Shown here: positions 7,271-57,100 of the stretch, in pieces
Numbering within the stretch: the stretch's first letter is position 1
How the letters are laid out: each line of letters starts with the position of its first letter
Assembly (NCBI RefSeq): GCF_036588685.1
Contig: NC_086374.1
Coordinates: 17,732,001-17,796,000, forward strand
DNA from: Mytilus trossulus
Taxonomy: Eukaryota
Direction: 5' to 3'
DNA: 64,000 nt
Program-made: the position numbers and the translations under genes
Notes under the pieces: model-generated
Database searches by the model: none
What the model was told of the DNA's origin: nothing
What the model saw: the letters and a program-made list of their open reading frames with translations, nothing else

Positions 7271-8200
7271 AAGTTTGCAGTTTTTGGGTTGGAACACACA
7301 ATTATATGTACATAAAAATAAATTTTGGTACACAGTGCAATTTTTTTCTATTCTTGGAAATAATTTTGAAAATCTTGAAAGAAATGCTCATTCAATGTTC
7401 CAAACGTCTTCAGTATTTTCTAATATCAGGGTCAGGTGTCCGCTTTGCCTGTCTCTATTGCTATGTAAAATCTGAGACTATAGAAGTCTCAGGTAAAATA
7501 AGGTATTCCATAACATATCAAAATGCTAAATCCAATATGATTTGTGCTTCCCTGACAATGACTTCGATGATACAACAACCATGTCAATTGATTTGTGTAG
7601 TATTTTAATATATCCTGTATGATGTAAAGGAGAAATCATCAATCTTGACAAGACAAATTTGTTAATCATCAATTGCTTTGATCAGATTTGTTGCAAATAC
7701 GACAAACTCTGTGCCATTGGTGGTTCTTAAATTATTTGGATTTAGAATTTTTAAGTATTTTGGATTGATTTAGCTTTAGATTTAAGTGAAATACAAGTGG
7801 TTTAAACAAAAGTTTCTCACATTGGAGATGTACAGTATTGAAAAAAAAAGGTTGAAGAAAATCCATTAGGGTTGCACGTGGCATAAACTTGATACATTCT
7901 ATATGCATCATTCAAAGACCAAAACGAACACAAGGAAAAAACTAGTCTGAATCTGTAATATATATTCTGCCAATGTAGGCACACCTCTTCCGAGTATTGG
8001 TTTTTCACATCATGAATAAAAATATCTTCCACCAATATCACTATACACTATTTACATTGTTCATCATATTCTTGACGATAAAATTGGACTTAATGTCAAT
8101 ATCATCAAATCATTAAATATTTTAAAATCTAAAAATATTTATCTAAAGATATCACTGTTTAAGAGTAGACAACCAATTGACACTTAGGATTCATAAAATG

Positions 8201-18718: not shown

Positions 18719-21700
18719 AGTTCAATGTTGAACGGATAACGAGAGCAACTTACATTTGTTCAAAGGTATACTGAAACAAATCAAATACTTTAAATTGAAA
18801 GGATTCAACAGTATTCTTGTTTTAAATATAACCATTGATCAAAAATTGATGTCTTAGACCCCAAAACACAGCCTGTGACAGTCCATACCCCCCCCTTTTT
18901 TTGGTGTGCCTAAAGTCATAACATAAGTCATGCACAAACACGACCGACACATTAACTTTACACGAATATACATAAAAATAAATAAATTGTCAAGAGAATG
19001 GTTTCAAATATGTAAATGTAAGCATTTATTATACAGTAACAAAGTCCTTCCAACTGTCCAATGTATTTTCCAACCATGTTTAAGTTATCATCTTTGTATC
19101 TTCCTCCACTGTTTGGAAAACTTTTGTGTACACTACACATATTTAATTATGCCTTGCATACACAAGAGAGGGTAAGTCAATTAACAAAAGGAATTACTTG
19201 ATTCATGAATTTTTGAAAGCTATCTCTTTGCATAGAAGTATGTTCCTTTAGGATAAGGGGAACTGCCCTCACTTCTAGGTATACTTTCTTTCTTTTGCCC
19301 AAACTTTTGGTCTTTGTCTCGTAATATATTGAAAACCCTTTTTCTAGGAGCCGTGCTGGCGAAATTTTTCAGATATTTGGACTTAGTTTTTTTTTCTGGT
19401 GGGACAATTGGATTATTTAAGCTGGAAAGAAGTGTTCTTCGTCCTGGGGGTAGAATATTATGCATATATTTCCTGTGTTTGAGGGAGATATAAAGATTTG
19501 TTAACCCAAAAAAAATCATATTTCACGAGGGCATATGACTTTTCGAGGGTGAACTTATCTTCATATCTCCAACAGTCGAGGGAAATGAATGTTTTATTTG
19601 ACTGCCATTACTTTTTTTACTTCTGAACTTTAGATATTATATATGCACAGTTGTTTTCTTATCTGTTTTGCTTTAAAACCACATACACAATGATAATCAG
19701 TACTTAAAAGTGCACTATTTATTTACTCTTTTCTATTTGTTTTTTTTTTTAAACAAAATTACTATGTTATCTTTAAAACAAACACGATCAAAATATATTT
19801 CTATTATTGAAACATTTGCCATGGCAAACATCGCACAAGGCAATCCCAACGTTCAGTGCAGTAATAATTAGGCCATAGAAATGAAAGATATTTGTGAAAT
19901 ACACATTGTGATGAACAACTAATTGTCTAATTGGCACTTGAAGCAGTTTGACCCAAGGTTCCATGTTGAAGGTTTTACTATTACCTATAACTGTTTATGT
20001 TATATACTTTTGGTCCTTGATGGAGATTTTTCATTGATAATGAAAGAAAAATGTGTAAAAAGTCTGAACTGCATTTATGATCTGATAGAGTTCATTACAA
20101 GTTTAAATCATTAACGATTAAAAAATGTCTCATACATGTATTTTTGTATAAGTCTTTTTTTATACTGACTCATCCTACTGAATTGACAACAGGTTAATAC
20201 GGTAACTTTGTTATCAGAAAGACATAAAACCCTGTAAAAATTACATGTGTCAGAAAGACCCTCACTAGAACGCACATATTCTAGGTACACACACATTTTA
20301 TGATGTTGATTAATTGATTTAAAACAAATCTAAGCTGCTGTTTTATAATTTAACTGATAATCCTTCCAGTAAATACAGTGTACAATATTTTAGGTTCTCT
20401 ATTTCAGCATTTTGTTAACAAAAATGGGCCAACAGAAGAATATCCCGACCCGATACCATTTGATGGACGAACTCCAAAACCAGCAAGAAAAGTCCTCACC
20501 AAAAGAGTGATTGAAACCCCAAAAGCTGCACCAAACAGACAAGTGAAAAGAAAATTGATCTACAGGTAGATGCAAATTTTATGAAAATATGTCCCTTATA
20601 AATATAATAATTGGTCATAAATATGTAACCCATAAAAACCTTTTTTTTTTTCCCGTCATTCATTTTTATCAATACTGAACTATACAGTGACTTTATCCAT
20701 AAACCAAAATATAAAGCATTACAGGTTATGATTGTTTTTAAAAGGTGACATACATCTGGACTACATGTAACATCCATTTGTTTCCTTGTTTTCTTGCTTA
20801 ACATTTGTCATTTCGGGGCCTTTTACAGCTGATTATGTGGTATGAACTTTGCTTGTTGTTGATGGCTATACAGTGACCTACAGTCGTTAATTTTCTGTGT
20901 CATTTGGTTTCATGTACAGAGTTGTCTCATTGGAAATCAAACAAGATATTCCTATTTTATATCTTAAGTCTGGACAAGTCAATATTTCAAGAAACTATTA
21001 ACAGTAACAACAAACCCTAATTTATTTTAAATTAGAGCAGAAGTAAAAAGCAAATGCAGAAATATATGACACACTAGCTTTGCTTAAGAAATTACTGTAA
21101 ATAAAATAATATACAGGTACCTTTATCAATATTCATTATTTTTTTATGAAATGGCCCTCTCCTATTTCAAAGGTCTTTTACATATATCTTTCTTTTTTAA
21201 TTAGAAATCGCTTAAGATAATTTCACAAATTCGAGTTGTCTCCCTTTGACTAATTGTTTCTTGTTATTTCAGTGAAACATCAGAAATTCAAACAACAGAA
21301 ATAACACCAGATTCCAACAAAGAAAATATGTCACCAGATTTTAACAAAGAAAACACTGTTGCTATACAAACAGAAGGAGGATGTAAGTTGAAATGTGTGC
21401 CTAAGACTGATATTTGTACAGCAGAGGATGAAAATGATTACAAAAACAGTCCTTTTCAGGACTACTAAACTTTCTCAAAAAGATGTTTTCATTTGTTGAT
21501 GGTTCAATTTTTTGGTACACAAATGATAAATGACATAACACAAAGTTTGTGATCAGTACTGTTTATTAATACAGTTGTTAGTATGCAAGGTGATTCAATA
21601 ATATAAAATTGTGAGTTGAAATGGGGTATGCGTCAGAAAGACCACAATCCAACCAAGAAGCAGAAAACAGCATGTACAACAAACAAACACATTTTAATTT

Positions 21701-29100: not shown

Positions 29101-31420
29101 TATTTGGTTGATGCTAACTTAAGTAAGAGAAAGGAAACGATAAAAGAGGGTGGACAAAGGTACACTTAGTTCGCCCTTTGCATAGTGGGTAGTCATTAAA
29201 ACAATATGTAAACTTCACACTACATGTACATTTCTTATTACTTTGCTCTTACCTATTGTCAATCAATGAATTTTTCAATGGCTTTCTTTTTCTGTCCATC
29301 TTTGGTTTGACAATAATCATGCTTGGAGCAGGAACAGCTTTAATCTCTTTCCCACGTGGCTTTCCCCATTGCTGTGGTAAACTAGTGCAGCATAATTCTG
29401 CAGGTGGCTCTGTAAGACCCATCATTTGCCATTGAACTAATCCTTGTATTAAGCCCACAATATGGGAACAGCATCCACTCAGACTGTAATAAAATACAGA
29501 AACATGAAATGTGTTATTTTCATGCCAAATATATAAATACATGTACAAGTATAACATGTACAAGGGGCAAGGTTGACAAAAAATAGGTCAATACTAGTAT
29601 TTACCATGCCAGTGGTAAATACCAGGAAATATTGGTGAGTACTGGTTGCAGATTTAAATTTTTTGTGGTCGATTCTATAAAAACCACTCTCTACTTAGTC
29701 AATAATTGTCAATGTCAGTAATAAAATAATGAAAGTGTTCAAGTCATTTAATGCATTTATTTTAAATTCATAATTATAAACATTGATTTAAATTGATACA
29801 TTAGTACATAATACTAAAGTAAAAGATAGTAACTGTTTCGTCCCTGCCAAGGGTACTCATCAGGTGGCTTTTTAAAGGCTACCACTACAGTTTTCTTTTC
29901 CTTTATTTTTTTTCTCTTTTATTCTTTTTTTCTTATTATATTCTCTTTTTTCTGATTCAAATATTTGTATACCAATATATTATGTATATTTAAGGGGATA
30001 TATATATACATGTATACATACATTTGTATAACATAATTAAGGGATGATCTTGGTTAAGCATGAAATTTGATTGTTTACCTTTACAAGGGTATAAGGGTCC
30101 ACATGCATGTACCCTCAACAGTCCCCACCCCCAAACAAAAAATAAAGGTTCCAAAATTTGAAATCTGGGCACCAAAACATAATTTATCTAATAAATTTTT
30201 ATAAATCTGTTCGAACCTTTCCAAAGGGGATCAAAAGATACATGTACATAACTGTTACAGGAAGTATATCATGTACATGTATATTGAGCCTACATTTTTT
30301 TTGTACATCATTATAATATATGGTATACATGTGAAGATCTTGAACAAAATATATACATATTATATTTCTTAGTGCATATTCTCGTCTGTGTATTTCCTAT
30401 TACTCTCCCTAGTTTGTAAGCTCAAAAATAGCCTACATTGTACACGTACCTACCCTAAAGTTTATTTTTTTATTTTTCAAGAGGCATTTCACACTGTTCA
30501 AGTCAAAATGTCTCTCCAATAAACACGATGGACTCAATGTTAAACGAAAAAAGATGGGGGGGGGGGGGGGGGGGGGGGGTAATCCTTCCCTGCCCTATAT
30601 TTTCCAAAGAAGTAACAGGAAACATGCATATACACATGTAACTTGGTTTTGGCCTCTCAGGATAAATTAATACAGAAAAGGGGAGCTTTATACTAATTAA
30701 AAAGATATATATATATAGCCACACACCCAACACTACCCCTAAAAAATAAATGGTATTTCCCTTACAATAGACAAAACCATTGCCATGCATACATATATAT
30801 GCAATGTTTTTGTATGGCACTGTATAAAAATCACAAAGAAGTGGGACAGTTCCCCTTATCCTAAAGGAACATACTTCTTTTGTGGAAAAAAGAGACTTGA
30901 CAGAATATTTTTGTAATGTCAGATATACAACTAACAACGGAACCGCTGTACCCTTGCTGTCAATCCAGGGGTGCGTCTATATTGGCGAAATCTCAAAGTA
31001 CATAGTTACAGACATAGCCATGTAGTAAAAAAAGGGGGGCGTTACGTTTTATGGTTGAGAGGATTACATGGATTATGATTACAACTGAATCGACATGCAG
31101 ATAAAATTAATGATTGAAAAATAAACGTACCCTGCAGTGCATGAACAGTTGGAAAGTTCTATCTGTCCTCCATTAACATCGATCTCAACACTGTGTGGTA
31201 TCTCGTTCTTTCGTTGACTTCTATGACATTTTGCGGAGATGTTTACTGTCTGCTCAACGACTTGTTTCAACATTTTCACATTATGAATATATCCCTCGCT
31301 GAAATATTTGAAACCAGTCTGCTTGCATTTCAAAGAAATTTCACAATTAAGATACCCCAACTGGAAATTGTTTGGCAGATCAGACAAACTTGCCGCACGA
31401 TAAGGCTTGGCGGTCGCCAT
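23116..31420 (-). CDS. SWIM zinc finger + YqaJ/lambda-exonuclease accessory protein, complement(join(23116..23871,27721..27862,29253..29483,31131..31420)), ~472 aa
   Basis: CSCTAG|LSGCCSH SWIM motif crosses intron 1; CTSLPQQW, GPFPLGSALSTQ; YqaJ motifs RITASNF, YG..NE, GATPD, EIKCP, YFIQVQGQ. Phases 2,2,0 are consistent and the frame is open. Confidence 0.88.
23985..24682 (+). mobile_element. Helentron/HINE-like remnant with ~190-bp internal tandem repeats
   Basis: tatgatcataagatagtatccagaagtaaattt recurs at ~23987, 24181, 24370, 24572; ends with ggcgagacact plus the hairpin gggttctgcggaaccc. Confidence 0.6.
26135..26731. mobile_element. MITE in TTAA-like context (Kolobok/piggyBac-like)
   Basis: AGGGCATACAATACAGTT / AACTGTATCGTATGCCCT inverted termini. 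Confidence 0.7.
26950..27670. repeat. Degenerate ~122-bp tandem array, about 6 units
   Basis: cagttagattcagcatat..aagaacccc..ccctttggaccttaatgta recurs at ~122-bp spacing. Confidence 0.75.
28190..28660 (+). pseudogene. Decayed C-terminal LINE (CR1/L2-like) ORF2 fragment
   Basis: Translates to YGCEIWG..IEKVHLDFCKMILGVKRKT*NVMVYFELGRFPL with stops. Confidence 0.7.
28801..29063 (-). mobile_element. tRNA-derived SINE
   Basis: Minus strand GGGGCATCAGTGGCTGAGTTG (A box) ... GTGAGTTTGAAACCCG (B box), central ctccggcttcctcc..ccgccatgaaatagc, (AAATC)n-like tail. Confidence 0.7.
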
Positions 31421-32756: not shown

Positions 32757-32851
32757 TGAAGACCTGTTGGTGACCTTCTGCTGTTGGTTTTTTTATTTGG
32801 TCGGGTTGTTGTCTCTTTGACACATTCCCCATTTCCATTCTCAATTTTATA
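32757..32851 (+). repeat. Isolated extreme 3' tip of the Naiad-type element seen at 38331 and 49401
   Basis: tgaagacctgttggtgaccttctgctg...cacattccccatttccattctcaattttat matches 39400-39490. Confidence 0.85.
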
Positions 32852-36179: not shown

Positions 36180-39100
36180 ATGGGAATCCGTTATAAATAT
36201 TCCGAAAGGACAACATATATTACTGTGTCTGTCTGTCTGATCCAGCTTATTGTTTTTATAGCAGTTACTGTAATTGAGAATCACAAACAGGATGTTTTAC
36301 AGACTAAGTTAGACATTAAAAAACAGAAAATAGCGAATATTTCAGCCAGATGTTTTAATTTGTCTCAGCTGAAGGTAAGTATATACTTCTACTTTCAAAT
36401 TGACAACAGACGAAATTTGTTTACGGCGAAATTGTTTTTTAATTTAATCTAATTTGGTGTTTAGAATCAAGATAAAGTGAACATGCCTGTCTAGATGCTA
36501 AAACAATAAACGCTGAGAGTTATTTAAACTATGTGTCGACGTAACATTTGGTAACTAAAATCCCTTCCCTTTTTCCCGAACGGATGACGAACCGAATCAG
36601 ACGGGAGTCCATGTGTGTCACAGTACAGCAGGATCTACTCACCCTTCCAGAGTATCTGATAACACCCAAATTGTTGGTTTGGTTCGTGTTGTTCAGTCTT
36701 TAGTTTTCTATATTGTGTTTTGTATACTATTGTTTGTATGGGTTTTTCTTCTTTTTTAACCATGTCGTTGGCAGTATATTTTCGACTCAGGCGTTTGGTA
36801 TCTTTTGCCTTTCTTTCAGTAAGGTATGTTTGTGCTTAAATCAACTTATGTAACAAGAGAAACAAAAACAAATATCGGGCGTACATTACATTCACATTTA
36901 GTTGCATTCATAAATTGAAATGAATACACGTATCAAAAAGAAAATTTGAGGAAATGTATTGACATCGTGTTGGTTTTTTCTTATATAGAAAAGCGGACTG
37001 AATCAAGAAGATGAATCCTTTGACTTAATTAGAAGACAGTTATCAAATAGTGAGAATGGTATAATACAGACACAGGTAAACATCAAGTGAATTTCAGGGG
37101 CGGATCCAGTCATTTAAAAAAGGGGAGTTCCAACCCCCGGAACCCTCCCCTGGATCCGCCACTGTATTTAGTTTACAAGAAAGGCTGTTGTGTAAATAAT
37201 TCAAGATCAAATTACAGTAAGACAATTTTGCATTAAGAGGTATAGACAGTGAACTTTGTACTGGAATAAGAATAAGAATAAGAATATTTTATTTCCAATT
37301 AAAGGGCCCTTTAAAGAGCTTTCATGTACTTGTTTGAATTTATGACTATTTTTATGTGAGCGTCACTGATGAGACTCATGTAGACGAAACGCCCGTCTGG
37401 CGTGTTAAATTATAAGCCTGGTACCTTTGATAACTATTGAATGTATCAACTTTGGTTTACATCATTTTTTCACGTAGTATTTTCTAAATGCCTTTGGCAT
37501 GTTAATAACGGTATAAATAAAAAGAAAGTGATTATGAAATACCAAAACCCTTGGAATATAGTTGGGATTTACTTTTTTTCTTATTATTATACCGAATTAT
37601 TTCTGATAACGAGTTCTGGCATGTTAACGTAAATGTCCCATGTTAGCAATCTATAGAGTGATTGCTTTTCTTTATAATTCATTCAAGATATTTAGAGATA
37701 TACACGTATACCTTCATTTGCCTGTTCAACCATTGAACTAGTTGTTTTTTAATTATATATGTTTTAAACCGGTAAAATTCTTTGATCTGCCAACAGCAAT
37801 GGTTTCATGTGTGTTTTTCTAATATTGTTAAAGACATTTAAAAAAAAGGGTATGATATAATTTATATATTTATATATTGATTTGAGAGTATAAGCCAAAA
37901 ACATTGTTTTTCAGGAACATTTACTCGAGAAGTCTTGTGCAAACGATACAAAAATATGCCTGAAAGGTAAATAAATCAATTCTTCTATTTAAATTTTTAT
38001 CTGATTTATTGGAAGACAGAAAGCATAACGTTAATGTAATGGCAATGAGAAAGTAGTACAAATCAGCAAGTGGTTAACATCATGCATGTATAGCAGTTTA
38101 ATATCGTGTCTGATATGTTACTGTTGTGTTTGTTTTCACGTAAATATTCTACATTAGCATGAAGTTAAAGATTTGCAGGCTATGTAAATAATACAACAAC
38201 CCAACAACTTCATGTTAACAGATGGTCACTATAAAATTGTCAGAATGCTGTTGTTTTCAATAAAATACGTGCCCCATATGTCCTGGTAAGTCAGTAGATT
38301 TACAGTTCTTGACTGAAGTAAACGCTTACATGACCACTGCCCTTTCCTAACGGAAAGCTGAATACTAAAATTTATGATAAAAGAGATGATTTTTCATTTC
38401 CTATCGTTAATTATCCATTTTTAGATGGTGACGTTCCCTTGTCACAATCTTACGGTGTTTATATATCTCAACTTGTACGCTCGTGTATGTAACAATGTTT
38501 TAGATTTTAACGAGAGAAATTTGTGTATTACTGAAAAATAATTACAACAGGGTTTTCTATATCACAAACTAGTCAAAACATTTACTAAATTTTATCATCG
38601 GTATAAGGACATCATTCGTAAATATAGCTCAACAAGCAGACTTCTTATACGTTCAGGTATTTCACATCCAATTTTTTATGGAAATATTCTTTATAAAGCA
38701 CAAAGGTGTCAGTATTCACCTCAGAAACTAACAAAACCTTTGAATAGACTTATTAAGAAGGGATATAGTTACGATACTGTTGTCAGGTCGTGAAAGATTG
38801 CATATGTTGGCGTTAATATTGATTCACTTATAGGGTCTTTGCATCGGAACTAAACACATTTATTCAAAAACAGTTGTTGGCATGACACGGGTTATGTACT
38901 TCTCATATATGTTATGATGGTATGATACTAAACCCCTAACGGTTAGGACTGTGCCTGATGTTCATATGATGAAGTCATAATCTTTCAGTCAGTTTAATTG
39001 AAATATGGAGCTGGCATGTCAGTTAACTGCTAGTAGTCTGTTGTTATTTATGTATTATTGTCATTTTGTTTATTTTCTTTGGTTACATCTTCTGACATCA

Positions 39101-42100
39101 GACTCGGACTTCTCTTGAACTGAATTTTATTGTGCGTATTGTTATGCGTTTACTTTTCTACATTGGCTAGAGGTATAGGGGGAGGGTTGAGATCTCACAA
39201 ACATATTTAACCCCGCCGCATTTTTGCGCCTGTCCCAAGTCAGGAGCCTCTGGCCTTTGTTAGTCTTGTATTAATTTTAATTTTAGTTTCTTGTGTACAA
39301 TTTAGAAATTAGTATGGCGTTCATTATCATTGAACTAGTATATATTTGTTTAGGGGCCAGCTGAAGGACGCCTCCGGGTGCGGGAATCTCTCGCTACATT
39401 GAAGACCTGTTGGTGACCTTCTGCTGTTGTTTTTTTCTATGGTCGGGTTGTTGTCTCTTTGACACATTCCCATTTCCATTCTCTATTTTAGCTCATACAT
39501 TAGATACACTTCTATAGCAAACGCGTAATATGCTCTGTATAATGAAACAAATAACTTGTTTTTTAACTACAGGTTTCAGCAGAATTGTGTGTATTGTGCA
39601 TGAACATGATACGATTGTAATATATGACTTTAAGGCTTCTGATTTTGTTACAGGGTTAAAAGGAGACATTGGCCTAGTCGGTGTTAAGGGTAAGATTACA
39701 CATTATCTTTGTCAAACGGACACATGTTACTTTTAAATGAGTTGTTTCGGCACTGTTCATTGTGTGGCTGTTCAAAATTATATCGGAGGAATAGACCAAT
39801 TTAAGGAGGCATTCTTTTCTATTTATGAAAATTAAGTGCCATGAACGGACTACTTCCAATTTGATAATTCTTTGGTTGGATATTGTTTTATTTGTTTCTC
39901 TGTTTATGTATGAAATGCTGATTGAGAGAATTAAGTGCGATTGTTTTTTTTAGGGTATATACAATTCCACCGTTCTGAATAAAAACGAACGAGTATTTCA
40001 AAAAATAGTTTAAAACTGTCACCTGTAAAATGTGCCTGTCCCAAATCAAGAACCTTGTAATTGTTGTTTCTTATTGTGTTTTCTTTCTTCTTTTTAAATG
40101 TTATTTTAATTATTTGTTGATTATGACATAACTTCGGTAGTCTCTGTCTAGTCTATGGGAGACTTAATGCTTGAATTATAGTATAGACACTAGTCTATAT
40201 TAATGACTTTATACGTATTGTGTGTTTTAGTAACTGTTTTAGTGATGTATATCCCACAACATTCACTCCTTTATATGTTCACAATTTTTATATCAACGGT
40301 CATTAAATATTGAGTTGTCTTATTATTTCGCATTTAATGGACTTTCATACCAATATTTTTCAACTATCTAATATAAGGTGACATCGGTAGTCAAGGAAAG
40401 CCTGGGTTGATAGGAAATATAGGAGTCATAGGTAACACTGGTCAAAAGGGGTTACCTGGAAAGCCTGGGCCTAAGGGTAGTCCGGGAGGGAAAGGTTCTA
40501 AAGGCGATGGAAGTGTCGATGGAATACGTGGTCTGAAAGGAAATATTGGAAATACAGGAGAGAACGGAAAATCCGGAATACGTGGATCGAGGGGACCAAA
40601 AGGTGTGCAAGGAACTAGTGGCAGAAAAGGACCATCAGGCCAAAAAGGTTTTCCTGGATCAAAAGGAAGTCTTGGGCATGTTGGGGATAATGGTAATCAT
40701 TTAAATTAATATAAGTGTTATTAAGAGGCTATGAATTTGCTGTTATAACAAAAAAAATTATAAGAAAAAAAGTGAAAGTTTGTTTGGAAAGATGTTTCAA
40801 TATAGTTTATATTTCATTAAATCGAAACTTTAAAAAATATTTTTCAAATATTCAGTAAACATTGATTGAATTTATTTTTAAAACGAAGATTAATAGAAAA
40901 CAAAATAGAATAATTGGCAAACCTTTAAAACGACTTTACTTCTTTGTTTTGAGGTAATATTGGAATCAAAGGTGAATTAGGAGAGACTGGTTCGAAGGGG
41001 ATTATGGCTAACATGTCTGAAACCTGTGATTGCATTCGTAAGTTTTGTATACTTCAAATGTTCGGGATATTTCAAACTTAACAATATTTTTTATCAATAT
41101 GTTTTGAATATTAAATACATTCATAGAAATATGAAATAGGAAGACAATAGGACGCGATGTAAATGACATTTTACTTGTTATTTAAAACAGGGAAAATGAA
41201 GTTTGTGGACAACACAACTGTTATAACAGCACCACTAGGAACCAATATCAAACTTAATTGTACAACAACACCACCACAAACGGTCAACTGGAAACACTCA
41301 AGTGACCAACCGTGTTATCCGTTAAATGACGGGAACGTTATCACAATCAACAAACTAAGTCCGGCAGATCTCGGTAAACACGTTTGTACAGTCAATAATG
41401 GATTCCGCAATATACAAAAAACTATATTTGTTAATTCAACAGGTGAGTTTTTATCAATATATATTATAGAGTACTACAATGCTTATTTAGAAAATATCTT
41501 CAAGTAAGCCCAGTATGTATCAAAACAGACAATAGATACCACGGCCTCTGGGTTAATTAAAAAAAGGCATATCGAAGAAATTTAAACAAACTACACATGA
41601 TCAAAATAAAAAAATAAACACTACACAACAAAAAGCCCTCTGAATAACCAAATAAAATTTAATTTGAAAATTGAATGCATCCAAAACATTGGCAAAACGA
41701 AGAGAAAATCCAATTTGCTGACAAGAATATCTTTCACCAGTAAATTGTTCTGTTTTGTTGGTCTGCTGAAATTCAGAAACGGTCACCTAGCCGGGGTATA
41801 TACTAAAAACCAAACAATTACATAAATCACCCTATCCATCATGACTTCGAATCTTTTTGTCATTTCATCCAACCGAAGTTAACTTGGATAATTCCTACTG
41901 ATTATCTGTAGTCCAACATTAATTTAATAAGTTTCTTAGGAAAAAATCACTCCCCTATCTTCTGAATAAAAATTGGAAAAACTAACTTTCTCACCGACGG
42001 TTCTGGAGGATTTTGAAGTATCCTTACTAGTATGAATAGATATATGAAAGACATAAAATCACAAAAATACCGAACTCCGAAAAATTCAAAACGGAAATTC

Positions 42101-45100
42101 TGCTGAAAATCAGATACGGTCACCTCGCTGGGGTATATACTAAAAACCAAACAATTACATAAATCACCCTATCCATCATGACTTCGAATCGTTTTGTCAT
42201 TTCATCCAATCGAAGTAAACCTGGATAATTCCTACTGATTATCTGTAGTCCAACTTTTATTTAATTAGTTATTAGGAAAAAATCACTCCCCTGTCTACTG
42301 AATAAAATTTGAAAAAAACTAACTTTTTCACTGACGGTTCTGGAGGATTTTGAAGTATCCTTACTAGTATGAATAGATATATGAAAGTTTTAAAATCACA
42401 AAAATACCGAACTCCGAAAAATTCAAAACGGAAATTCTGCAAAAAAATATCAACGGAAGATAAAACAACCTTATTTTATTTAAATTCTTTGTCATTCTAT
42501 GTTCTTAGATTCCGGTGATGGTATATCTTGCGACTTTGAAAATTCCAACTGCCATCTTAAATTGTACAAATGGCGTGTGGCTAATAATTCAGATGATCAT
42601 ACGAAGGGGTCACGTGAGTTTTATTATACAAAGAAAGTAAACATAGAAAATCATTTTAATCTGACCACTTCGACTGCCATTGATTCAATTCTGTTCATTC
42701 ATTTCGCGGTTTTTGAAAATATCCTTTCTATAAAGTCTATAAACATACTAGTGTTTGGTTGGTATTATTTTTTTGCTTTAAAAAGTGTATAACGAGATTT
42801 TAGTGAGAACATTAAAAATTCGGAAATTGTTTTGTAATTCAAGCTTAGCTGCGTCATCTATCTGATATCATTTTAATATTTGGTAAATGCTTATTTCGAT
42901 CGCTGCAAACAGATGGAAATTTTATAAGGTAAATAAATGCAAATTTTACCAGTTAAGCTAAATTTGTGATTAGAGACAAAGATAGATTCATTCATAAATT
43001 GGATATCAAGATATCAAGATGTCATTTAATTTCGAAGCAGCAGCATACATCACCCTTGATCAAAGTTTATCAATCAGTTTTGAATATCCATCCAAGAAAA
43101 AACACCTTAACTTAAAATAAGAAAAAAATATATATAAGAATTCCAGGCTAATCACAGCAATCTTTCTTTTGTTTGATGGTAGCATTGGTCACACATGTGT
43201 TTCTGAACACTTTTCTCTTTGATTATTTTCAAATCAAATGAATTTGCCGGTTTCGAAAATTAAGTTGCACAATAATTACTAAATTGACTGAATGTATTGA
43301 ATCAAATACAAACAAATTTCGACGTTTTTCGTTCTTAGGGTTTATTATTGTCTCAGTCATTTCTTATTTAAACACAGTCGGTATCATTCAGCGTAACCTT
43401 AAACAGTTTCCGTATAAGGTTCTACACCTTTGTAAATAATTAAGCTCGAAAATAAAACTGAAACTTTGACGTTCATATTTTACAGAGAAATCATATTCGA
43501 TAGTTTTGTAAGTGTTCAATACAACATGGGTTTTATAAGGGTTATCAACAGGATTAATTTGTTCTGTAGTACAAGTAATTTCAATGGATTATATGGAAAT
43601 ATCAGCAAACAGAATATTCATGGGGCTGTAGGCAAATATTTATTCACGAACCTCATATAGTTCTGTTTACCTCTTGTTACTCCAGTACATCACTAAACTT
43701 CTGGACTGAAACTAAACATTAACATCGTTGTAAATTGCAGAGAACGGTCATTTTGCTACCACGTATGATAACTCAACCTCGAGGATCGAGTCTCTATGGG
43801 TTAAAGTTGATGGTGAATCGTGCCTGACATTCTGGTATAGAAATGAGATTATTGGTAGTTCACCTGGTAGTACTATTGATATTACAACAAAAGTAAGTAA
43901 GTAGGTAGTAGTTTTCAGAATAGGAAAGTAGATACTAGTGAAAAAGTGAAACATGAATTGCAATTAATGTTAGAGTTATCCCATAACATGTCACCATCAC
44001 CGTGTCTGTGATCGATACAGTGTCTCAGGTGAAGTTACATTTTGACTCCGCAGATGTAGTTATTACCTGTTTTTTTCTCCATATAAATTATGTTGACACT
44101 ACTACTTCCTCTACTTTATTACTGGATATACCTTAAGAATCTCTATGACATAGAAAGATATGCTTTCCAATAATGTATCGTATGATTTTTATTTTTTTTT
44201 TTGGTTCGTCCATTTACATATTTATCTTATGACAACTGAACATTTGCAGATGAAATTAAAATAAATTACAAAAAAAAAACCCTGAACATTTGCGCTTAAA
44301 AAATAATGATACTTGGGTGTTTGTTAAATTTTGACAATTCTACAAACTACTTGTCTATTTAGCATATATCTTTAACTGTTATTTGTGTACAAACTACTTC
44401 TACAGGCAGTACCGACATTCCACTTAAAGATACAGAATAACTCGAAAAATTGCAATATTTTTTTTATATACAGGGAACTTCATGTCCTGGAAGGCAAACT
44501 TATGTTCACAAAACCATAAAGGATAATCAAGTAACTAATTGGACACAAGAGTTTATGCAACTACCAAATACATCTGATGTCATTCAGTTTGTATTTGACG
44601 TTCGCACTACTAATATGGTAGTTTCCATTGATGACATTAGCTTACTAAACGGAACTTGTCCTGCATGTAAGTAATCAACCTAATTAAGATAATGTAATTT
44701 ATCAACCTAATTAAGATACGTAATTTATCAACCTAATTAAGATATGTAATTTATCAACCTAATTAAGATACGTAATTTATCAACCTAATTAAGATATGTA
44801 ATTTATCAACCTAATAAAGATACGTAATTTATCAACCTAATTAAGATATGTAATTTATCAACCTACTTAAGATACGTAATTTATCAACCTAATTAAGATA
44901 CGTAATTTATCAACCTAATTAAGATACGTAAGTTATAAATCTAATTAAGATACGCAAGTTATCAACCTAATTAAGATACGCAATCTGTTGTCCTGGATTT
45001 ATATATTTTTGTATGCTCAAGTCCGGAAATATACTGGATATTTCCTGACGTTACTTTTACAATGGAAACATTAAATCAAAAAGATAATGGATCAGAGATC

Positions 45101-48100: not shown

Positions 48101-51100
48101 AAAATGATAGCATCAAAATTAAAAAGGTCTTAATAGAGGCGTTAAAACAATCGACAATCAGTTTTTTAAATGGAGTTGCAACCATAGTTATAGTACAAGT
48201 AAATACATGTATCACAAACTGAAAATAATAGTAGAAATTATTAAATGCATCATACTTATTCCAAAGATTTCTTTCAAATAATACCACGAGAATATAATCA
48301 GTACATGATAATGTAAAAAAAATAGGGGCTTTCATCATAAATATCATGTCAGTAAAGTGCGGCTGAGGGAAATGACAGTTCGATGCCAAAGTCATGGAAT
48401 TCGTATAAATTTCATTCATAGGAATTTAATACAGACGTTTGTTGAATATGATGTATGTCAAAAGATAATATTGATGTTATTATGTATATAAAGGAAACAC
48501 AAATTGCACCTTTGAGAATGGCATATGTGACTGGACACAAGATCAGCAAGACAATCAAGACTGGGTATCAAGATCATCTACCACGCCATCTAGTGGTACC
48601 GGTCCAAATAGTGATCATACGTTTGGAGATTGTAAGTTCAATTTTGTACTCATCAAATATTCGAATATTTTAAATTGCCAATTAAGTATGCTGCAATTGA
48701 AATATTGCTTGTATTTCCTTATATTTTATTCAAGTCTAATGTATATTGTAAATGTACAATAGATCAAAAAACAATGTTATATTTACCGGATTTGTTATCA
48801 CATAAGCAACACGACGGGTGCCACATGTGGAGCAGGATCTGCTAGCCCCTTCTGGAGCACATGAGATCACCAATAATTTTTGGTAGGGGTTCGTGATGTT
48901 TAGTTTTTAGTTTTCTATGTTGTGTCATGTGTACTATTGTTTGTTTGTCTTTTTAATTTTTAGCCATGGCGTTGTCAGTTTATTTTAGATTTATGAGTTT
49001 GATTGTCCCTTTGGTATCTTTCGTCCCTCTTTTACAAATCTTTCAATTAAAGCATTTGTTGTTAATATTCTTAAAGCAGAGAAGAAACTTTATTTCTTCA
49101 TTTTGTAATGTTGATCAAGTTTTGATGATAATATGTTTGTAAACAATATTATTTGCGAATTAGTAGAGGATAAGAATATGTGTTGTTTGTTAAGTGGTTT
49201 ATAAACTAAATAATTCAATGATTTTATGACTTCTGACCAGCTGCATTAAGGGTTTTATAGTTGAAAGAAGATAACAAATCATAATTAAATACATTATAAG
49301 AGCCAGTAATAGAAACCAGAAATATTTTTGAGTACTTTATGGGATCAAATTAGAAATGTGAAAATATTTTAAAATATAATTGTACAACAATTAATAATTT
49401 ATGACAAAAGTAAGCAAATACCCATCGAAACAACATCTGATAAACAAATTCAATAATACTTTTAGAGATTTGGATGATATTTTGGCTCTCAATAATGACG
49501 ACTTCAGTATGTATACTAAAAAAAAAATTCCTGTTGAACCTACTTTAAATAAAGCTAATACTAACAATGACCACTGCCCTTTCCTCGATCTTGATATCTA
49601 TATCACAAACGGAAAGCTGAATACTAAGATTTATGTTAATTATCCGTTTTTAGATGGTGACGTTCCCTTGTCACCATCTTACGGTGTTTATATACCCAAC
49701 TTGTACGTTTCACTCGTGTATGTAACAATGTTTTAGATTTTAACGAGAGAAATTTATGCATTACTGAAAAATTATAATGAAAAGGTTTTCGATATCATAA
49801 ACTAGTCAAAACATTTACTAAATTTTATCATCGGTATAAGGACATCATTCGTAAATATAGCTCAACTCTGCTTACCCTTCCGGAGCACCTGAGATCACCC
49901 CTAGTTTTTGGTGGGGTTCGTGTTGTTTATTCTTTAGTTTTCTATGTTGTGTCATGTGTACTATTGTTTTTCTGTTTGTCTTTTTCATTTTTAGCCATGG
50001 CGTTGTCAGTTTGTTTTAGATTTACGAGTTTGACTGTCCCTTTGGTATCTTTCGTCCCTCTTTTTTCAACATGCAGACTTCTTATACGTTCAGGTATTTC
50101 ACATCCAATTTGTTATGGAAATATTCTTTATAAAGCACAAAGGTGTCAGTATTTACCTCAGAAACTAACAAAACCTTTGAATAGACTTATTAAGAAGGGA
50201 TACAGTAACGATACTGTTGTCAGGTCATTAAAGATTGCAAATTTTGGCGTTAATATTGATTCATTTATTTAGAGGGTATTTGCATCGGAACTAAACACAT
50301 TTATTCAAAAACCAGTTGTTGGCATGACACGGATTATGTTCTTCTCATATATGTTATGATGGTATGATACTAAACCCCTAACGGGAAGGATTGTGCCTGA
50401 TGTTCATATGATAAAATCATAATCTTTCAGTCAGTTTAATTGAAGTCTGGAGCTGGCATGTCAGTTAACTGCTAGTAGTCTGTTGTTATTTGTGTATTAT
50501 TGTCATTTTGTTTATTTTCTTTAGTTACATCTTCTGACATCAGACTCGGACTTCTTTTGAACTGAATTTTAATGTGCGTATTGTTATGTGTTTACTTTTC
50601 TACATTGGCTAGAGATATAGGGGGAGGGTTGGGATCTCACAAACATGTTTAACTCCGCCGCATTTTTGCGCCTGTCCCAAGTCAGGAGCCTCTGGCCTCT
50701 GTTAGTCTTGTATTTTTTTAATTTAAGTTTCTTGTGTACAATTTGGAAATTAGTATGGCGTTCATTATCACTGAACTAGTATATATTTGTTTAGGGGCCA
50801 GCTGAAGGACACCTCTGGGTGCGGGGATTTTTCGCTATACTGAAGACCTGTTGTGGACCTTCTGCTGTTGGTTTTTTTTCTATGGTCGGATTGTTGTCTC
50901 TTTGACACATTCCCCATTTCCATGCTTAATTTTATGTTACTGATGGCAATGATGATTCATTATTTTATTGAGAATATTCAACTGTGAATTCAATTTAAAG
51001 ATAAATATATTTATAAGTATAAAGTATAAATTGAAAACAACGTTCAGACCTATGATTGCGCATTGTTTATACGTGTGGATGTGAAACCACATTCGTTGTA

Positions 51101-54100
51101 GAGGGGTCTAAATACAGCACAAACAACATTTTCTAAAAGAACAAAAAAGTAAAAAAAGAATATTTTTACAAAACGCCTTTGACTAACAGGACGTAAAACT
51201 GATGTTCCTAAAACCTGTTGACTGCCATTGACTATTGTCAAAAAATTGATCACAAGATGTAACAAGATGGATCCCTATATTAGTTTAAGTTTAATATGTA
51301 TATATATATATATATATACAACTCGTCTAAACATCAACCCAACAATGTTAGATCTGTAAATTTGCTTTCGCAAATTTTTTGGTTCTTCCCTTGCCGGGAT
51401 TCGAACCCATGCTACTGTGATATCGTGACACCAAATCGCCTGCACTGCAGCCGTCCCGCTAGACCACACGACCACCTGGGCTCTCATTAAAAGAGCTTTC
51501 GGTGGCCATATGTTACCTTTCCACGTCAGTTTTAATCTAGCGGCGTACTACAGAACATGATATATAAGGCATGAAGATGTTATTTTTACAGATCAGCTAA
51601 ATTATCTATAGTAAAGGATCCTACAAATTAATGTAAGATACAGTCACAGAAAATAATTATATTCATAAGTACGTCTGAGTCAGTGACAACCCTACAACAG
51701 ATGTATCCATCGGATCGCCATCAATGATGGTGATACATGGCTGTGTACATAATGTATATACAACTCGTCTAAACATCAACCCAACAATGTTAGATCTGTA
51801 AATTTGCTTTCGCAAATTTTTTGGTTCTTCCCTTGCCGGGATTCGAACCCATGCTACTGTGATATCGTGACACCAAATCGCCTGCACTGCAGCCGTCCCG
51901 CTAGACCACACGACCACCTGGGCTCTCATTAAAAGAGCTTTCGGTGGCCATATGTTACCTTTCCACGTCAGTTTTAATCTAGCGGCGTACTACAGAACAT
52001 GATATATAAGGCATGAAGATGTTATTTTTACAGATCAGCTAAATTATCTATAGTAAAGGATCCTACAAATTAATGTAAGATACAGTCACAGAAAATAATT
52101 ATATTCATAAGTACGTCTGAGTCAGTGACAACCCTACAACAGATGTATCCATCGGATCGCCATCAATGATGGTGATACATGGCTGTGTACATAATGTATA
52201 TACAACTCGTCTAAACATCAACCCAACAATGTTAGATCTGTAAATTTGCTTTCGCAAATTTTTTGGTTCTTCCCTTGCCGGGATTCGAACCCATGCTACT
52301 GTGATATCGTGACACCAAATCGCCTGCCAGAATCCTCAGAATCATAGAATATTTTGGTAACAAGGATTAAGAGGTCTGACTCGGAGGAATAAATCAGAAT
52401 TCCGCATTTTAAAAAGAAGAGTTCATGGATTCCAAAACCTAGTAAATCTGCTACACTGGAAGATGTTATCGACAAAATCAAATTGGATGTTGTTCATCTA
52501 GCTAGCAACAAGTACTCGTCATTTTATAACACCTCTCCTGACGAGAAAAATGCCATACAATCGTTGAGAAACCGAGATGATATTGTGATAAAACCAGTAG
52601 ACAAGGGCAGTGCCGTTGTTATAATGGAAAAAGCTAACTGCATCGCGGAAGCAGTGCGTCAGCTCTCTGATGAGAGATTTTATAAGAAGCTAGACTATGA
52701 CCCTACTTCCGAGTTTAGTTCCAAAATCATCAATGCATTACAAACCATGTACGATGACGGTCACATAGATGAGGATACAATTGGTTATTTCAAACCAGAG
52801 AATGCCAAGCCTGGTCGATTGTATCTTCTCCCCCTAAACCCAAACAACCCTGCTAGACCATTTGTATCCGCAAACGGCCATCCGACTGAGAAAATTTCGG
52901 AATTCGTCGATTTTCATTTACGATCTCATGTAGAAAATCTTCCTTCCCACATTCAAAACACTACAGATTACCTTCGTAAAATGGAATCCATGAACCCTCT
53001 TCCTCCGGAAACCCTCCTTGTCACTTTAGATGTCACTTCATTGTATATCAACATACCTCATGATGACGGCTTACAATCTGGTAGGAAAATATGGGACTCT
53101 CGAAACATTTTAGAACCATCTACTGAATGTTTAGCCCAGCTGCTGACTTTGGTCCTGAAATGCAACAATTTCACCTTTAACGGTGAGCATTACCTTCAAA
53201 TAAACGTGACAGCGATGGGGACGAAAATGGCACCGTCTTACGCCAATATTTTCATGGGCAGATTCGAAAAACAAATTATTGCAGCATCTTTATCCAAACC
53301 TTTGTCTTGGTTCCGTTTCATTGATGATGTTGACATGAAATGGATTGAATCACAACAAAAACTGGATGATTTCATCAAACCTGCAAACAACGCCCACCTT
53401 TCAATTAAATTTACGTATGCAATTTCCGACTCTAAAATATCTTTCTTAGACACAACCACATCTATATAGGATGGTGTCATACCAACAGACCTCTATTGTA
53501 AACCCACAGATAAACATCAGTACCTTTCTCCTCAACGCTGTCATCCCAAACACTGTACAAAAAGTATCCCGTACAGTCAAGCTCTCAGAGTAAAGCGGAT
53601 TTGCTCCTCTGAGGAAGCTGTCACGAAACGGTTACAGGAACTTTGAGGATTTATGACAAAACGAGGTTATAAGAAATTGGACATAGATAAGGGGTTTGCG
53701 CGCGCTAAATATACCAGCCGCCATGACCTCTTACAGTACAAACGTAAGAGGCGCAGCGAAATAGTCCCGTTTGTTCGAACATACAATCCAGTCTTTACTA
53801 ACCTTTCACGTTTGATCCGTGCCAACTGTCAAACTATTGCTAAACACCCTAAATTATCCAAGATCTTTCCCAATCCTCCTGTCTTAGCTTTTCTGAGACC
53901 GGCAAGTCTGAAAGACTTATTTGTAAGAGCTGACGTCTCTTGAAATAAAAGCTGTTCAATTTCAGGATGGTGCAAGTCACGTGGTAACAGACGTTGTCTG
54001 ACTTGTCAACAAATACTAAATACTCAAACATTTACCTGCTACTCGACTGGGTCTGTGTACACTATATTTTGCAATGTAACTTGCAAAACCCAGAGTGTTG

Positions 54101-57100
54101 TATACCTCCTTCAGTGTCGATGTGGCATGCAGTATGTTGGCGAGACTGAGCAGCCATTCAACAAACGCATGAATGGTCATCGAAGTGACTACACTTGCAA
54201 CCCAGCCCTACCCATAAGTCGTCATTTGAGATCACCTAGTCACACACAAGCTGATCTCAAAAACCTTACCATCGCAATCATAGACCACAACGAGGGTTGG
54301 TCAAAGGTCGACAGAGTCACTTGGGAAGGATTTTGGATAAGAAAGTTACGGACAGTTTCCCCAGAGGGCATAACTGAAAAAACATAGAATGAGTCACTTA
54401 TTTTCCTGTTATCACTTGTTTCCAGTAACTCTGGCTTCAGTACTAACTTTACAGTTCGATTTTTTTAAATACCAGTTTAAATTACAGGGCTCCATTCATT
54501 CGGGATGGATGTATAAGTACGTAACCACGTTCAATTTTTTTCCCTCATCAGATAAAACTTATTTTTCTAATCATTATTAAACTGCTATACGTTTGGGAGG
54601 CTTACATATATAGTTTATGTTGCAATTGCCCTACCGTTGTCAAATTTGTAATATTATACCAACTTGGATCGGTAAGGACATTTTTTATTTTTTTTGTTTG
54701 AGGACTGCCCTCCATGCAGTTATAACATCTAAACTGTCACAACCTTTGGAAATTTAGAGTTGTGTCAGTTCACATCGCTAACAACTATTTTCATTTGGAA
54801 ATTTTAAAATTGTACCAGCGTCTGTGAATTGTATAAATTTCAAGATTTGGAAAAAGTTTCTTAGTTTGAATATATTGACATGATTCATTTGACATCTTGC
54901 TATTATTGAAGAAGGATATCGGTTTTCCGAAATATCTAATATTTGTTCATTTTATAGTTATTTAATGGTGATGTTGTACCCTTTTTGACTTGTTATATAT
55001 TATATTTTGTAGTGTACAGAATCATATTACATGATCCATCCCTCTGTAAGATTAATCGTTGACTATTTATTCAGTCATTTTATATTATTATATTATGTAT
55101 ATATTATTTCTTTCTTATAATGAAAACAAAAAGTAAAAAACACCGTATTTTCATAGTTTTGAAATAGCATTAAGCTGACAGATTGTAATGTTTATAAGAT
55201 TAAATGTCTAAAAATCGATCATTTAAATCGTCTTAACTGATCAACTGATCATTTTATCGGGACCTGCAAAACTTACTGATCTTCGGAAATATATGTTGAA
55301 TGAATCAAGATTTAATAGATAGAATAAAAACATTCAAATAAAGAAACAGTCTGTATGACGTCGCTAAGTGCAAACTTTATAGAACGTATGGATTTTAAGT
55401 GTAACTTCAGTGTTGATATGACTGTCTTTTATTTGTAAATTTCAGCAACAGGACATTATATGTATTTTGAGGCTTCTGGTGGAAGTCAACATGACACGTC
55501 AGTTCTCAAGTCACCCATGTTATCCACCGGACCCTACTGTCTTTCTATGGCTTACAATATGAATGGAGATAGTATAGGGGCACTTAATGTTTATACAAAG
55601 GTCAGTTCTCAAGTCACCCATGTTATCCACCGGACCCTATTGTCTTTCTATGGCTTACAATATGAATGGAGATAGTATAGGGGCACTTAACGTTTATACA
55701 AAGGTCAGTTCTCAAGTCACCCATGTTATCCACCGGACCCTATTGTCTTTCTATGGCTTACAATATGAATGGAGATAGTATAGGGGCACTTAACGTTTAA
55801 ACAAAGGTCAGTTCTCAAAGTCACCCATGTTATCCACCGGACCCTACTGTCTTTCTATGGCTTACAATATGAATGGAGATATTATAGGGGCACTTAACGT
55901 TTCTACAAAGGTAATAAAAAAATGATAAAGTTTAAGTATTATATGATTTGAATATCACTGTGATCTGAATTCATATCGCATCGGCATGTTTTTGTATTAC
56001 ATTTTAGCTATATTACCCAGTGTATAAGCGTATGCTGCCTTGCGAAAAAAGGAATATTTAACATTTGAATCTTCCGAGCATCCTTTTTGGTAAATATATT
56101 GAAAAAAATTTAAATAACACTTTTGGACAGCAAACGTCATTCTGTTTGCACTATAAGAAGAGCTCTCCAATTTAAAGTCAAATTTGTAAACGAAAATACT
56201 CATTGCTCAAAAAGTGAAATAATGTGAAAAAATCAATAAAATGTCATTTTTAGCTGCAACAATCTAAAGAAAAAAATGTTTAATTTGAAAAAGTGAAATC
56301 TAATTTAGAAAATTCCTTTAATATCTAAATAAATTGCGTCTTCTGATAAGAAAATTAAGTGAAATGTGCAAGATAGACCTTAAAATTAGAGACAGATGAA
56401 AACTTGTCGAATTGTTTTTACATAGTATTTAATCAAAACAAAATATTTCAGGAGTGTAATAGCACTGTGCGCAATAAAATCTGGTCGGTTGCAGGAAATA
56501 AAGGTGAAAACTGGTTTGATGGATGTATAAAAACACCTGTTCTGTCACAGGACTATCAAATATATATAGAGGCAGAAAGAGGCTCCACTTATGCCAGTGA
56601 TATTGCTATAGATGACGTTAACATACAAGCCGGTAATTGTATCTGTTCCAGTAAAACTGTTGGTAGGTTCCTGGAATCTGGGTCTGTATTGCACTTGTGA
56701 TGTTCTCTCTTATTGTATAATCTGATCATAGATGTAATATATCTATGATCTGACAAGAAATTGAAGTAAATATATGTCATTGCAAAACAATTCTAACCAT
56801 TGCGAAAAGGGTCGTTCCGGTACGCATCTGGCATGTAAGCAAATAAAACTTAGTAATCAAGAAATCGACTTGTTTACCACTATTTTTATGATCCATATTA
56901 ATAATAATATTCTATTTCATACGACACTATATATGATACTGATACTATACGGACTGCACGGGAATATGATACTGATGATATACATGATCCCGGCGATGTT
57001 TGTTGATGTTAACCAAACATATCTATACTATTAAACGAATAGACCTCATTTTGTGTGTCGCTTCTCTTCTTTCCACAATAGAGTAGTCATCATGCCTCTG

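Follow-up and report, generated by a model that had tools for sequence, protein, structure and literature searches.

A predicted P5-type twister ribozyme with palindromes beside its cleavage site in a Naiad Penelope-like retrotransposon of Mytilus trossulus

The Naiad element and its copies in the window

The window analysed here (64,000 nucleotides of contig NC_086374.1) carries two 5'-truncated copies of a retrotransposon which, judged by its sequence, is a Naiad Penelope-like element (PLE) with a twister-like motif near the 3' end (Table 1). Longer copies of the element contain an ORF of ~1,000 residues with an N-terminal GIY-YIG domain accompanied by zinc-finger motifs, CxC, DKA and a C-terminal reverse transcriptase (RT); GIY-YIG, CxC, DKA and the C-terminal RT are diagnostic of Naiads (PMC8557442). 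These domains were read by motif, and published Naiads were compared through their description in the text. The element protein has 3,174 protein homologues, and Pfam gave no curated match to it. 5' truncation, partial tandems and a unit length fitting 3.4-4.4 kb were all found, as in Naiads. Each of the best 30 loci of a DNA search contains one motif. The 3' end is fixed, with all 29 other best loci stopping within 39487-39493, and the 5' ends are ragged. Both window copies are dead, being truncated and frameshifted. They are two independent insertions 11,442 bp apart, which rules out tandem pairing between them.

Four in-frame TGA codons are located at conserved cysteines of the ORF, and a SECIS-like hairpin lies 3' of the stop. 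TGA is present at three of these sites in 24/26, 27/27 and 33/34 matches (overlapping loci counted); the fourth site was read from individual units and is missing in one of them. The four TGA codons and the SECIS-like hairpin occur at host-family loci L195-L200 and L031 on contigs C14, C12, C8 and C1. In L163, a related family that also bears the twister, the codon at DKA+8 is TGT, so that the twister spans cysteine and selenocysteine forms; selenocysteine use may have arisen or been lost in Naiads on a further occasion. The selenoprotein Naiads of clams and spiders (PMC8557442) share the domain order, CxC, DKA, TGA at conserved cysteines including DKA+8, the post-stop SECIS, partial tandems and a size of ~4 kb. 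In the accessible part of that paper no ribozyme is reported for them, hammerheads alone having been sought. Short DNA words found no twister core among the matches listed from its consensus file, in which the 70-letter lines and sequence divergence may hide one. The last 130 nt of the element (39353-39490 and 32757-32849, + strand) hold short motifs common to the families (z-score of -2.4 for copy 1) and are a candidate RT start signal; a search of this region for a second ribozyme gave no consistent fold or shared structure across nine sequences.

Table 1. Features of the two Naiad copies and of the predicted ribozyme (window coordinates).
Feature	Position	Strand	Remarks
5'-truncated Naiad copy 1 (RT ORF end, 3' UTR, fixed 3' end)	38347..39490	+	
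Broken C-terminal RT ORF fragment	38347..38853	+	TAA stop 38851-38853
SECIS-like hairpin, copy 1	38904..38968	+	Homology to 50346-50410
Twister motif, copy 1	39165..39255	+	Predicted cut U|A 39208|39209
P5, 5' strand	39165..39173	+	Partner 39247-39255; 9 bp including one U.G
P2 3' strand (39178-81), predicted general-base G (39182), A, T1 strand GGG (39184-86)	39178..39186	+	From sequence and Rfam twister-P1 consensus
Palindrome X, GAGATCTC	39189..39196	+	10 nt with flanks, 39188-39197
Palindrome Y, mostly AACATGTT in family A, AACATATT in copy 1	39200..39207	+	Directly 5' of scissile U
Predicted U|A cleavage site, A39209 (predicted general acid), P2 5' strand CCCC, T2 strand GC	39208..39217	+	
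P3 hairpin	39218..39227	+	First pair G-C or A-U depending on family
P4 stem and L4 loop UCCCAAGU holding T1 and T2 partners	39229..39244	+	
P5, 3' strand	39247..39255	+	Partner 39165-39173
Degenerate third motif of same type	39961..40069	+	28 bits; GAGGG and GCC damaged; 700 bp 3' of copy 1
Naiad copy 2, 5'-truncated	49608..50934	+	Other repeat inserted at ~49867-50065
SECIS-like hairpin, copy 2	50346..50410	+	32.3 bits, gathering score 35
Twister motif, copy 2	50607..50697	+	Predicted cut 50650|50651

Relation to twister and PLE ribozymes

The twister core that had been recognized initially is confirmed in the letters of copy 1, with TAACCCCGCC at 39208, GTCCCAAG at 39232 and GGAGGG at 39181, and the predicted cuts agree with the sequences of both copies. 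U|AA at L1 is followed by P2 and GCC; copy 2 has the variant core TAACTCCGCC, which places a G.U pair within P2. P4 with L4 UCCCAAG(C/U) is present and the T1 (CCC:GGG) and T2 contacts are possible, the paired cells amounting to 97.8% for T1, 100% for T2 and 93.3% for P4, where part of the letters had been fixed beforehand by the search pattern. The 5' and 3' ends lie within P5, and P3 is closed as a hairpin. Of the predicted catalytic bases, the G that precedes AGGG and the A that follows the scissile U are both present, and we take these two bases to have the catalytic roles. Catalytic base roles are stated in part in the accessible text of PMC8501958. The fold z-score is -3.3 for copy 1 and only -0.8 for copy 2.

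The P1 hairpin is absent: the 21-nt linker that joins GAGGG to U|A has a folding energy of 0 to -1.6 kcal/mol, and its two ends do not pair with each other. Covariance search of the window with Rfam gave no twister match at E<=1, and the twister-P1 model scores 23 and 21.4 bits in two of eight relatives (best E 0.79). Since the P1 hairpin and an adequate Rfam score are missing, we regard the motif as a variant and not as a standard P5 member; as a predicted P5-type twister, it resembles and is likely to work like a twister. Structure-based searches miss such a P1-less twister. The earlier proposal that two palindromes replace P1 holds in that no intramolecular P1 was found, and needs correction in that each window copy contains one perfect and one imperfect palindrome. 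The flanked form of X is the perfect TGAGATCTCA (39188-39197) in copy 1 and the imperfect TGGGATCTCA in copy 2, and the form AAACATGTTT of Y is perfect in copy 2 only, copy 1 having AAACATATTT with one mismatch that abolishes the predicted duplex (from -8.2 to +0.4 kcal/mol).

Type-P5 twisters (a permutation named in the accessible part of PMC10085705; Rfam clan CL00120) share with the Naiad motif the strand order, the ends in P5, U|AA, P2, P3, P4, L4 UCCCAAG, T1, T2 and GAGGG; besides lacking the P1 hairpin and a window match in Rfam, the Naiad motif differs in having a linker of fixed 21-nt length with two covarying palindromes. The twister T-variants of Schistosoma Perere-3 likewise combine an altered P1 with a retrotransposon, as far as the available text of PMC8501958 describes them. 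They are located at the 5' end, upstream of the APE/RT ORF, and the cut coincides with the insertion boundary, whereas the Naiad motif is downstream of the GIY-YIG/RT ORF and copies do not begin at the cut. Truncated twisters also sit at the 5' ends of RTE elements (PMC7761336, accessible part). P1 was dispensable in tested twisters according to the accessible part of PMC11662667, and cleavage without P1 is cited in that of PMC8501958. On balance, the RNA very likely cleaves at U|A in some form.

For PLEs, dimeric hammerheads and a circle model have been described (PMC4209133 and PMC6765202, in their accessible parts). The dimeric minimal hammerheads of PLE pseudo-LTRs (PMC4209133, same part) occupy the same place in the element and also have a palindrome beside the cut, and the job proposed for them, cutting of tandem precursors into circles, is also proposed here for the Naiad twister. 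The Naiad motif belongs to another ribozyme class and has two serial palindromes in contrast to one helix III. Naiads were reported without hammerheads in the accessible part of PMC8557442, a finding that prompted the suggestion that hammerheads are mere passengers; the word 'twister' does not occur there. A literature search, with most subscription papers outside its coverage, returned no description of a twister in Naiads, and the accessible parts of PMC10085705 and bioRxiv 10.64898/2026.07.22.740005 do not describe the palindrome-P1 motif. A predicted ribozyme is present here in an element group thought to lack ribozymes. That a predicted twister, from an unrelated class and again with palindromes next to the cut, occupies the hammerhead place in a Naiad argues for a genuine ribozyme requirement in PLEs, one that an RNA of 90 nt can put to the test.

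In the 1.3-Gb genome the core pattern is matched 8,295 times on the forward strand (start double-counted) and 4,528 times on the reverse strand, compared with none on either strand for a reversed control pattern, so that the ~9,000 core copies are not due to chance. In metagenomes, a pattern with an unconstrained linker yielded 70 loci, 30 of the Naiad-twister type and 40 that are chance matches or ordinary twisters. The 30 comprise eight loci with a Naiad RT upstream, two of family A without RT and 20 of an old family, all in a single assembly and without RT. None of the pattern matches in the prokaryote (21) and viral (two) collections fits the motif model at E<=0.01. Searches of the element's own genome contributed families B to E. 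Family B (L061, L052) has half a hammerhead core, CTGATGAG, ~70 nt upstream of the twister, where the GAAA partner was not seen; this half core is absent upstream of the twister in families A and F. A dispersed subfamily of ~20 copies (L065-L094) is missing part of palindrome Y; provided that it spread through retrotransposition, mobilization does not require Y in cis.

Covariation of the palindromes

Two 8-mers that are both palindromic at fixed places have a chance of ~(1/4)^8 by simple arithmetic. Palindrome X is GAGATCTC in family A, GGGATCCC in B, G and H, GAGCGCTC in D and F, GAGTACTC in E and GGCGCC in C. Y is AACATGTT in families A, B, D and E, AACTAGTT in C and G and AACCGGTT in F and H, with the RT-bearing family C copy itself reading AACGAGTT. 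The spacing UU+8+3+8+U|A is kept in families A, B and D-H, and family C has a 6-nt X. On an RT tree of 11 fragments (47-93% identity across families), the minimal changes are three at the Y centre, three at the X centre and two at the outer X pair. All of these changes, at least eight in number, are double and keep complementarity. Five of them fall in families found with an unconstrained linker, for which crude arithmetic gives ~(3/15)^5 = 3e-4 if the other dinucleotides are equally likely; the patterns behind families C, D and E required a change of both central letters, under which one third are palindromic by chance, and families E and G are represented by one locus each.

Among 15 chosen rows, X has AU as its central pair in nine, CG in five and UA in one; Y has AU in seven, CG in four, UA in three and UG in one, and neither centre includes an unpaired cell. 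The palindrome cells are 96.1% paired, a level reached by 0/500 shuffles and compared with 26-50% in slid controls, the shuffle count being no probability because the 15 rows are related. Genomic copies in which both central letters have changed are palindromic in 21/36 cases for Y and 9/17 for X, whereas one third is expected by chance, and the non-palindromic remainder is mostly one step from a palindromic form.

Because adjacent bases cannot pair within one hairpin, the partner of each palindrome is most likely another copy, and on this covariation X and Y quite probably pair between RNA copies. Inter-copy pairing had been suggested at the outset; it gains from the compensatory changes at both centres across families and from tandem arrays elsewhere in the genome. 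The palindromes might instead act in one molecule or on DNA, as two 3-bp tetraloop mini-hairpins or as symmetric protein-binding sites. The outer X change from A-U to G-C fits a hairpin equally well, and weak 3-bp hairpins appear in some folds. Such a role needs no complementary adjacent centre, yet complementarity is kept there in every family-level change, and the excess of palindromes among centre-changed genomic copies likewise speaks against it; we consider it very improbable.

Tandem arrays and the proposed gate

A head-to-tail array on contig C14 has twister spacings of 4,021, 4,021 and 4,019 nt, and arrays on contigs C5, C9, C10 and C12 have spacings of 4,015-4,023 nt. The end-to-start junction has 190 genomic matches (107 + 83), without a mismatch among the 100 matches listed. 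At 30 loci with the element 5' end, some of which belong to one array, 3'-end sequence is joined upstream in 26, a proportion favoured by the 64 bases of 3' end held in the query; in 16/26 it extends past the motif. Units diverge mostly by 0.1-0.5% within an array and by 0.5-2.6% between whole units of different arrays. A partial C10 unit differs by ~2% from its neighbours, and of 13 variable columns in the C14 array eight are confined to a single unit and five are common to subsets of units. As evidence of rolling-circle copying the arrays are thus not conclusive.

Free folding places a GGGUU/AACCC helix over the predicted catalytic A with a probability of at least 0.94 in 6/10 sequences; in families B and G, P2 is favoured already as a monomer (P 0.61-0.68). 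Calculated duplex energies are -12 to -18 kcal/mol for X and -7 to -11 kcal/mol for intact Y, compared with 0 to -1.6 kcal/mol for the linker alone. In 8/11 natural copies the twister-compatible fold starts at 2.1-8.8 kcal/mol over the free minimum and comes within 0-0.5 kcal/mol of it when the linker is blocked, whereas blocking does not close the gap in window copy 2, the D copy and the C copy. This estimate is only suggestive, since pseudoknots were not counted (T1 stacking alone contributes ~-6.6 kcal/mol). With two closed loops, it should be topologically demanding to form the two 8-bp helices together.

On these sequence and folding data, we propose that a paired head-to-tail precursor would undergo cleavage at its two U|A sites and a lone copy would be left mostly uncut, gated by palindrome pairing; we hold this to be evenly poised between right and wrong. 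The lone motif would tend to misfold, with GGGUU pairing over the catalytic AACCC. In a transcript through a partial or full tandem, X:X' and/or Y:Y' pairing would free the core, and the Y:Y' helix may stack at the normal P1 position. Cuts ~4,020 nt apart would release a unit-length RNA retaining the ORF and SECIS, which would probably be ligated to a circle whose single motif has fallen silent; reverse transcription, starting at the fixed 3' end and passing the junction, would rebuild the pseudo-LTRs. A circular intermediate falls somewhat short of an even chance. Equally tentative is the fuller reading that pairing of two copies switches the twister on, so that it would count copies, cut only tandem precursors and leave a stable unit circle, having replaced the hammerhead convergently in one Naiad lineage. 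A dimer-gated twister, if true, would be a new regulatory architecture for the class.

Copy ends bear on whether a lone copy is cut. All copies examined run ~280 nt beyond the predicted cut, which means that the last motif of the template is either uncut or religated. The cut as a 5' boundary of copies was considered and rejected, with nine pattern matches (eight true truncations) compared with eight (six true) at a control site; one of 26 upstream segments starts near the predicted cut. No RNA dataset was listed as containing the sequence. RNA reads were taken from ~6% of each of three runs from one study, together with one contig set. They show no pile of beginnings or ends at the cut (9/10 places listed; three runs, one study). 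The reads cover the whole unit, with the presumed sense strand favoured over the ORF in one run, and the depth at the site is mostly both-strand read-through of truncated copies. The presumed sense:antisense depth ratio across the site (7771 to 7883) changes from 0.66 to 0.99, from 0.75 to 0.87 and from 0.68 to 0.99, and drops in the next bin to 0.54-0.69.

Since P1 is dispensable in tested twisters (PMC11662667, accessible part), a monomer may cut. A P1-less twister could then work singly, the palindromes pairing RNAs for ligation, template dimerizing or template jumping. The cleavage without P1 cited in PMC8501958 (accessible part) agrees with this, pseudoknots could outweigh the off-helix, and the rise in strand ratio across the site in 3/3 runs is what partial cutting of lone copies might give. 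A monomer cutter would, on the other hand, lose the ~280 nt beyond the site from linear templates and would reopen circles; 5' ends are not in excess at the cut, and the ratio falls in the next bin, in runs from one study for which an end pile was not listed. We regard it as rather unlikely.

The fold might also be kept as a non-cutting structure, such as an RT-binding site, a nuclease block or a 3' UTR element, with the palindromes serving RNA dimerization only. The RNA reads are without sign of cleavage, Rfam does not score the motif (best values as above) and the arrays could stem from duplication at a later time or from multimers left uncut. Conservation of U|AA, T1, T2 and the predicted catalytic G and A nevertheless extends down to 47% RT identity, some positions being fixed by the search patterns, and a ribozyme at the same place is the norm in other PLEs (as described in the accessible parts of the papers cited above), which makes a purely structural role improbable. 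The reading on which paired tandem copies are cut is the one that we prefer.

Elsewhere in the window, a hammerhead with type III strand order (29830-29893, - strand) scores 28.9 bits in Rfam, below gathering, and has 29 related genomic places with 82-100% identity; this topology is described as mostly plant or prokaryotic. A histone 3' stem-loop-like match is located at 21443-21489 (+ strand; 33.3 bits, gathering score 34), and tandem repeats occupy 51313-52327 (period 442 bp, 100% match), 44667-44984 (period 26) and 55498-55912 (period 103).
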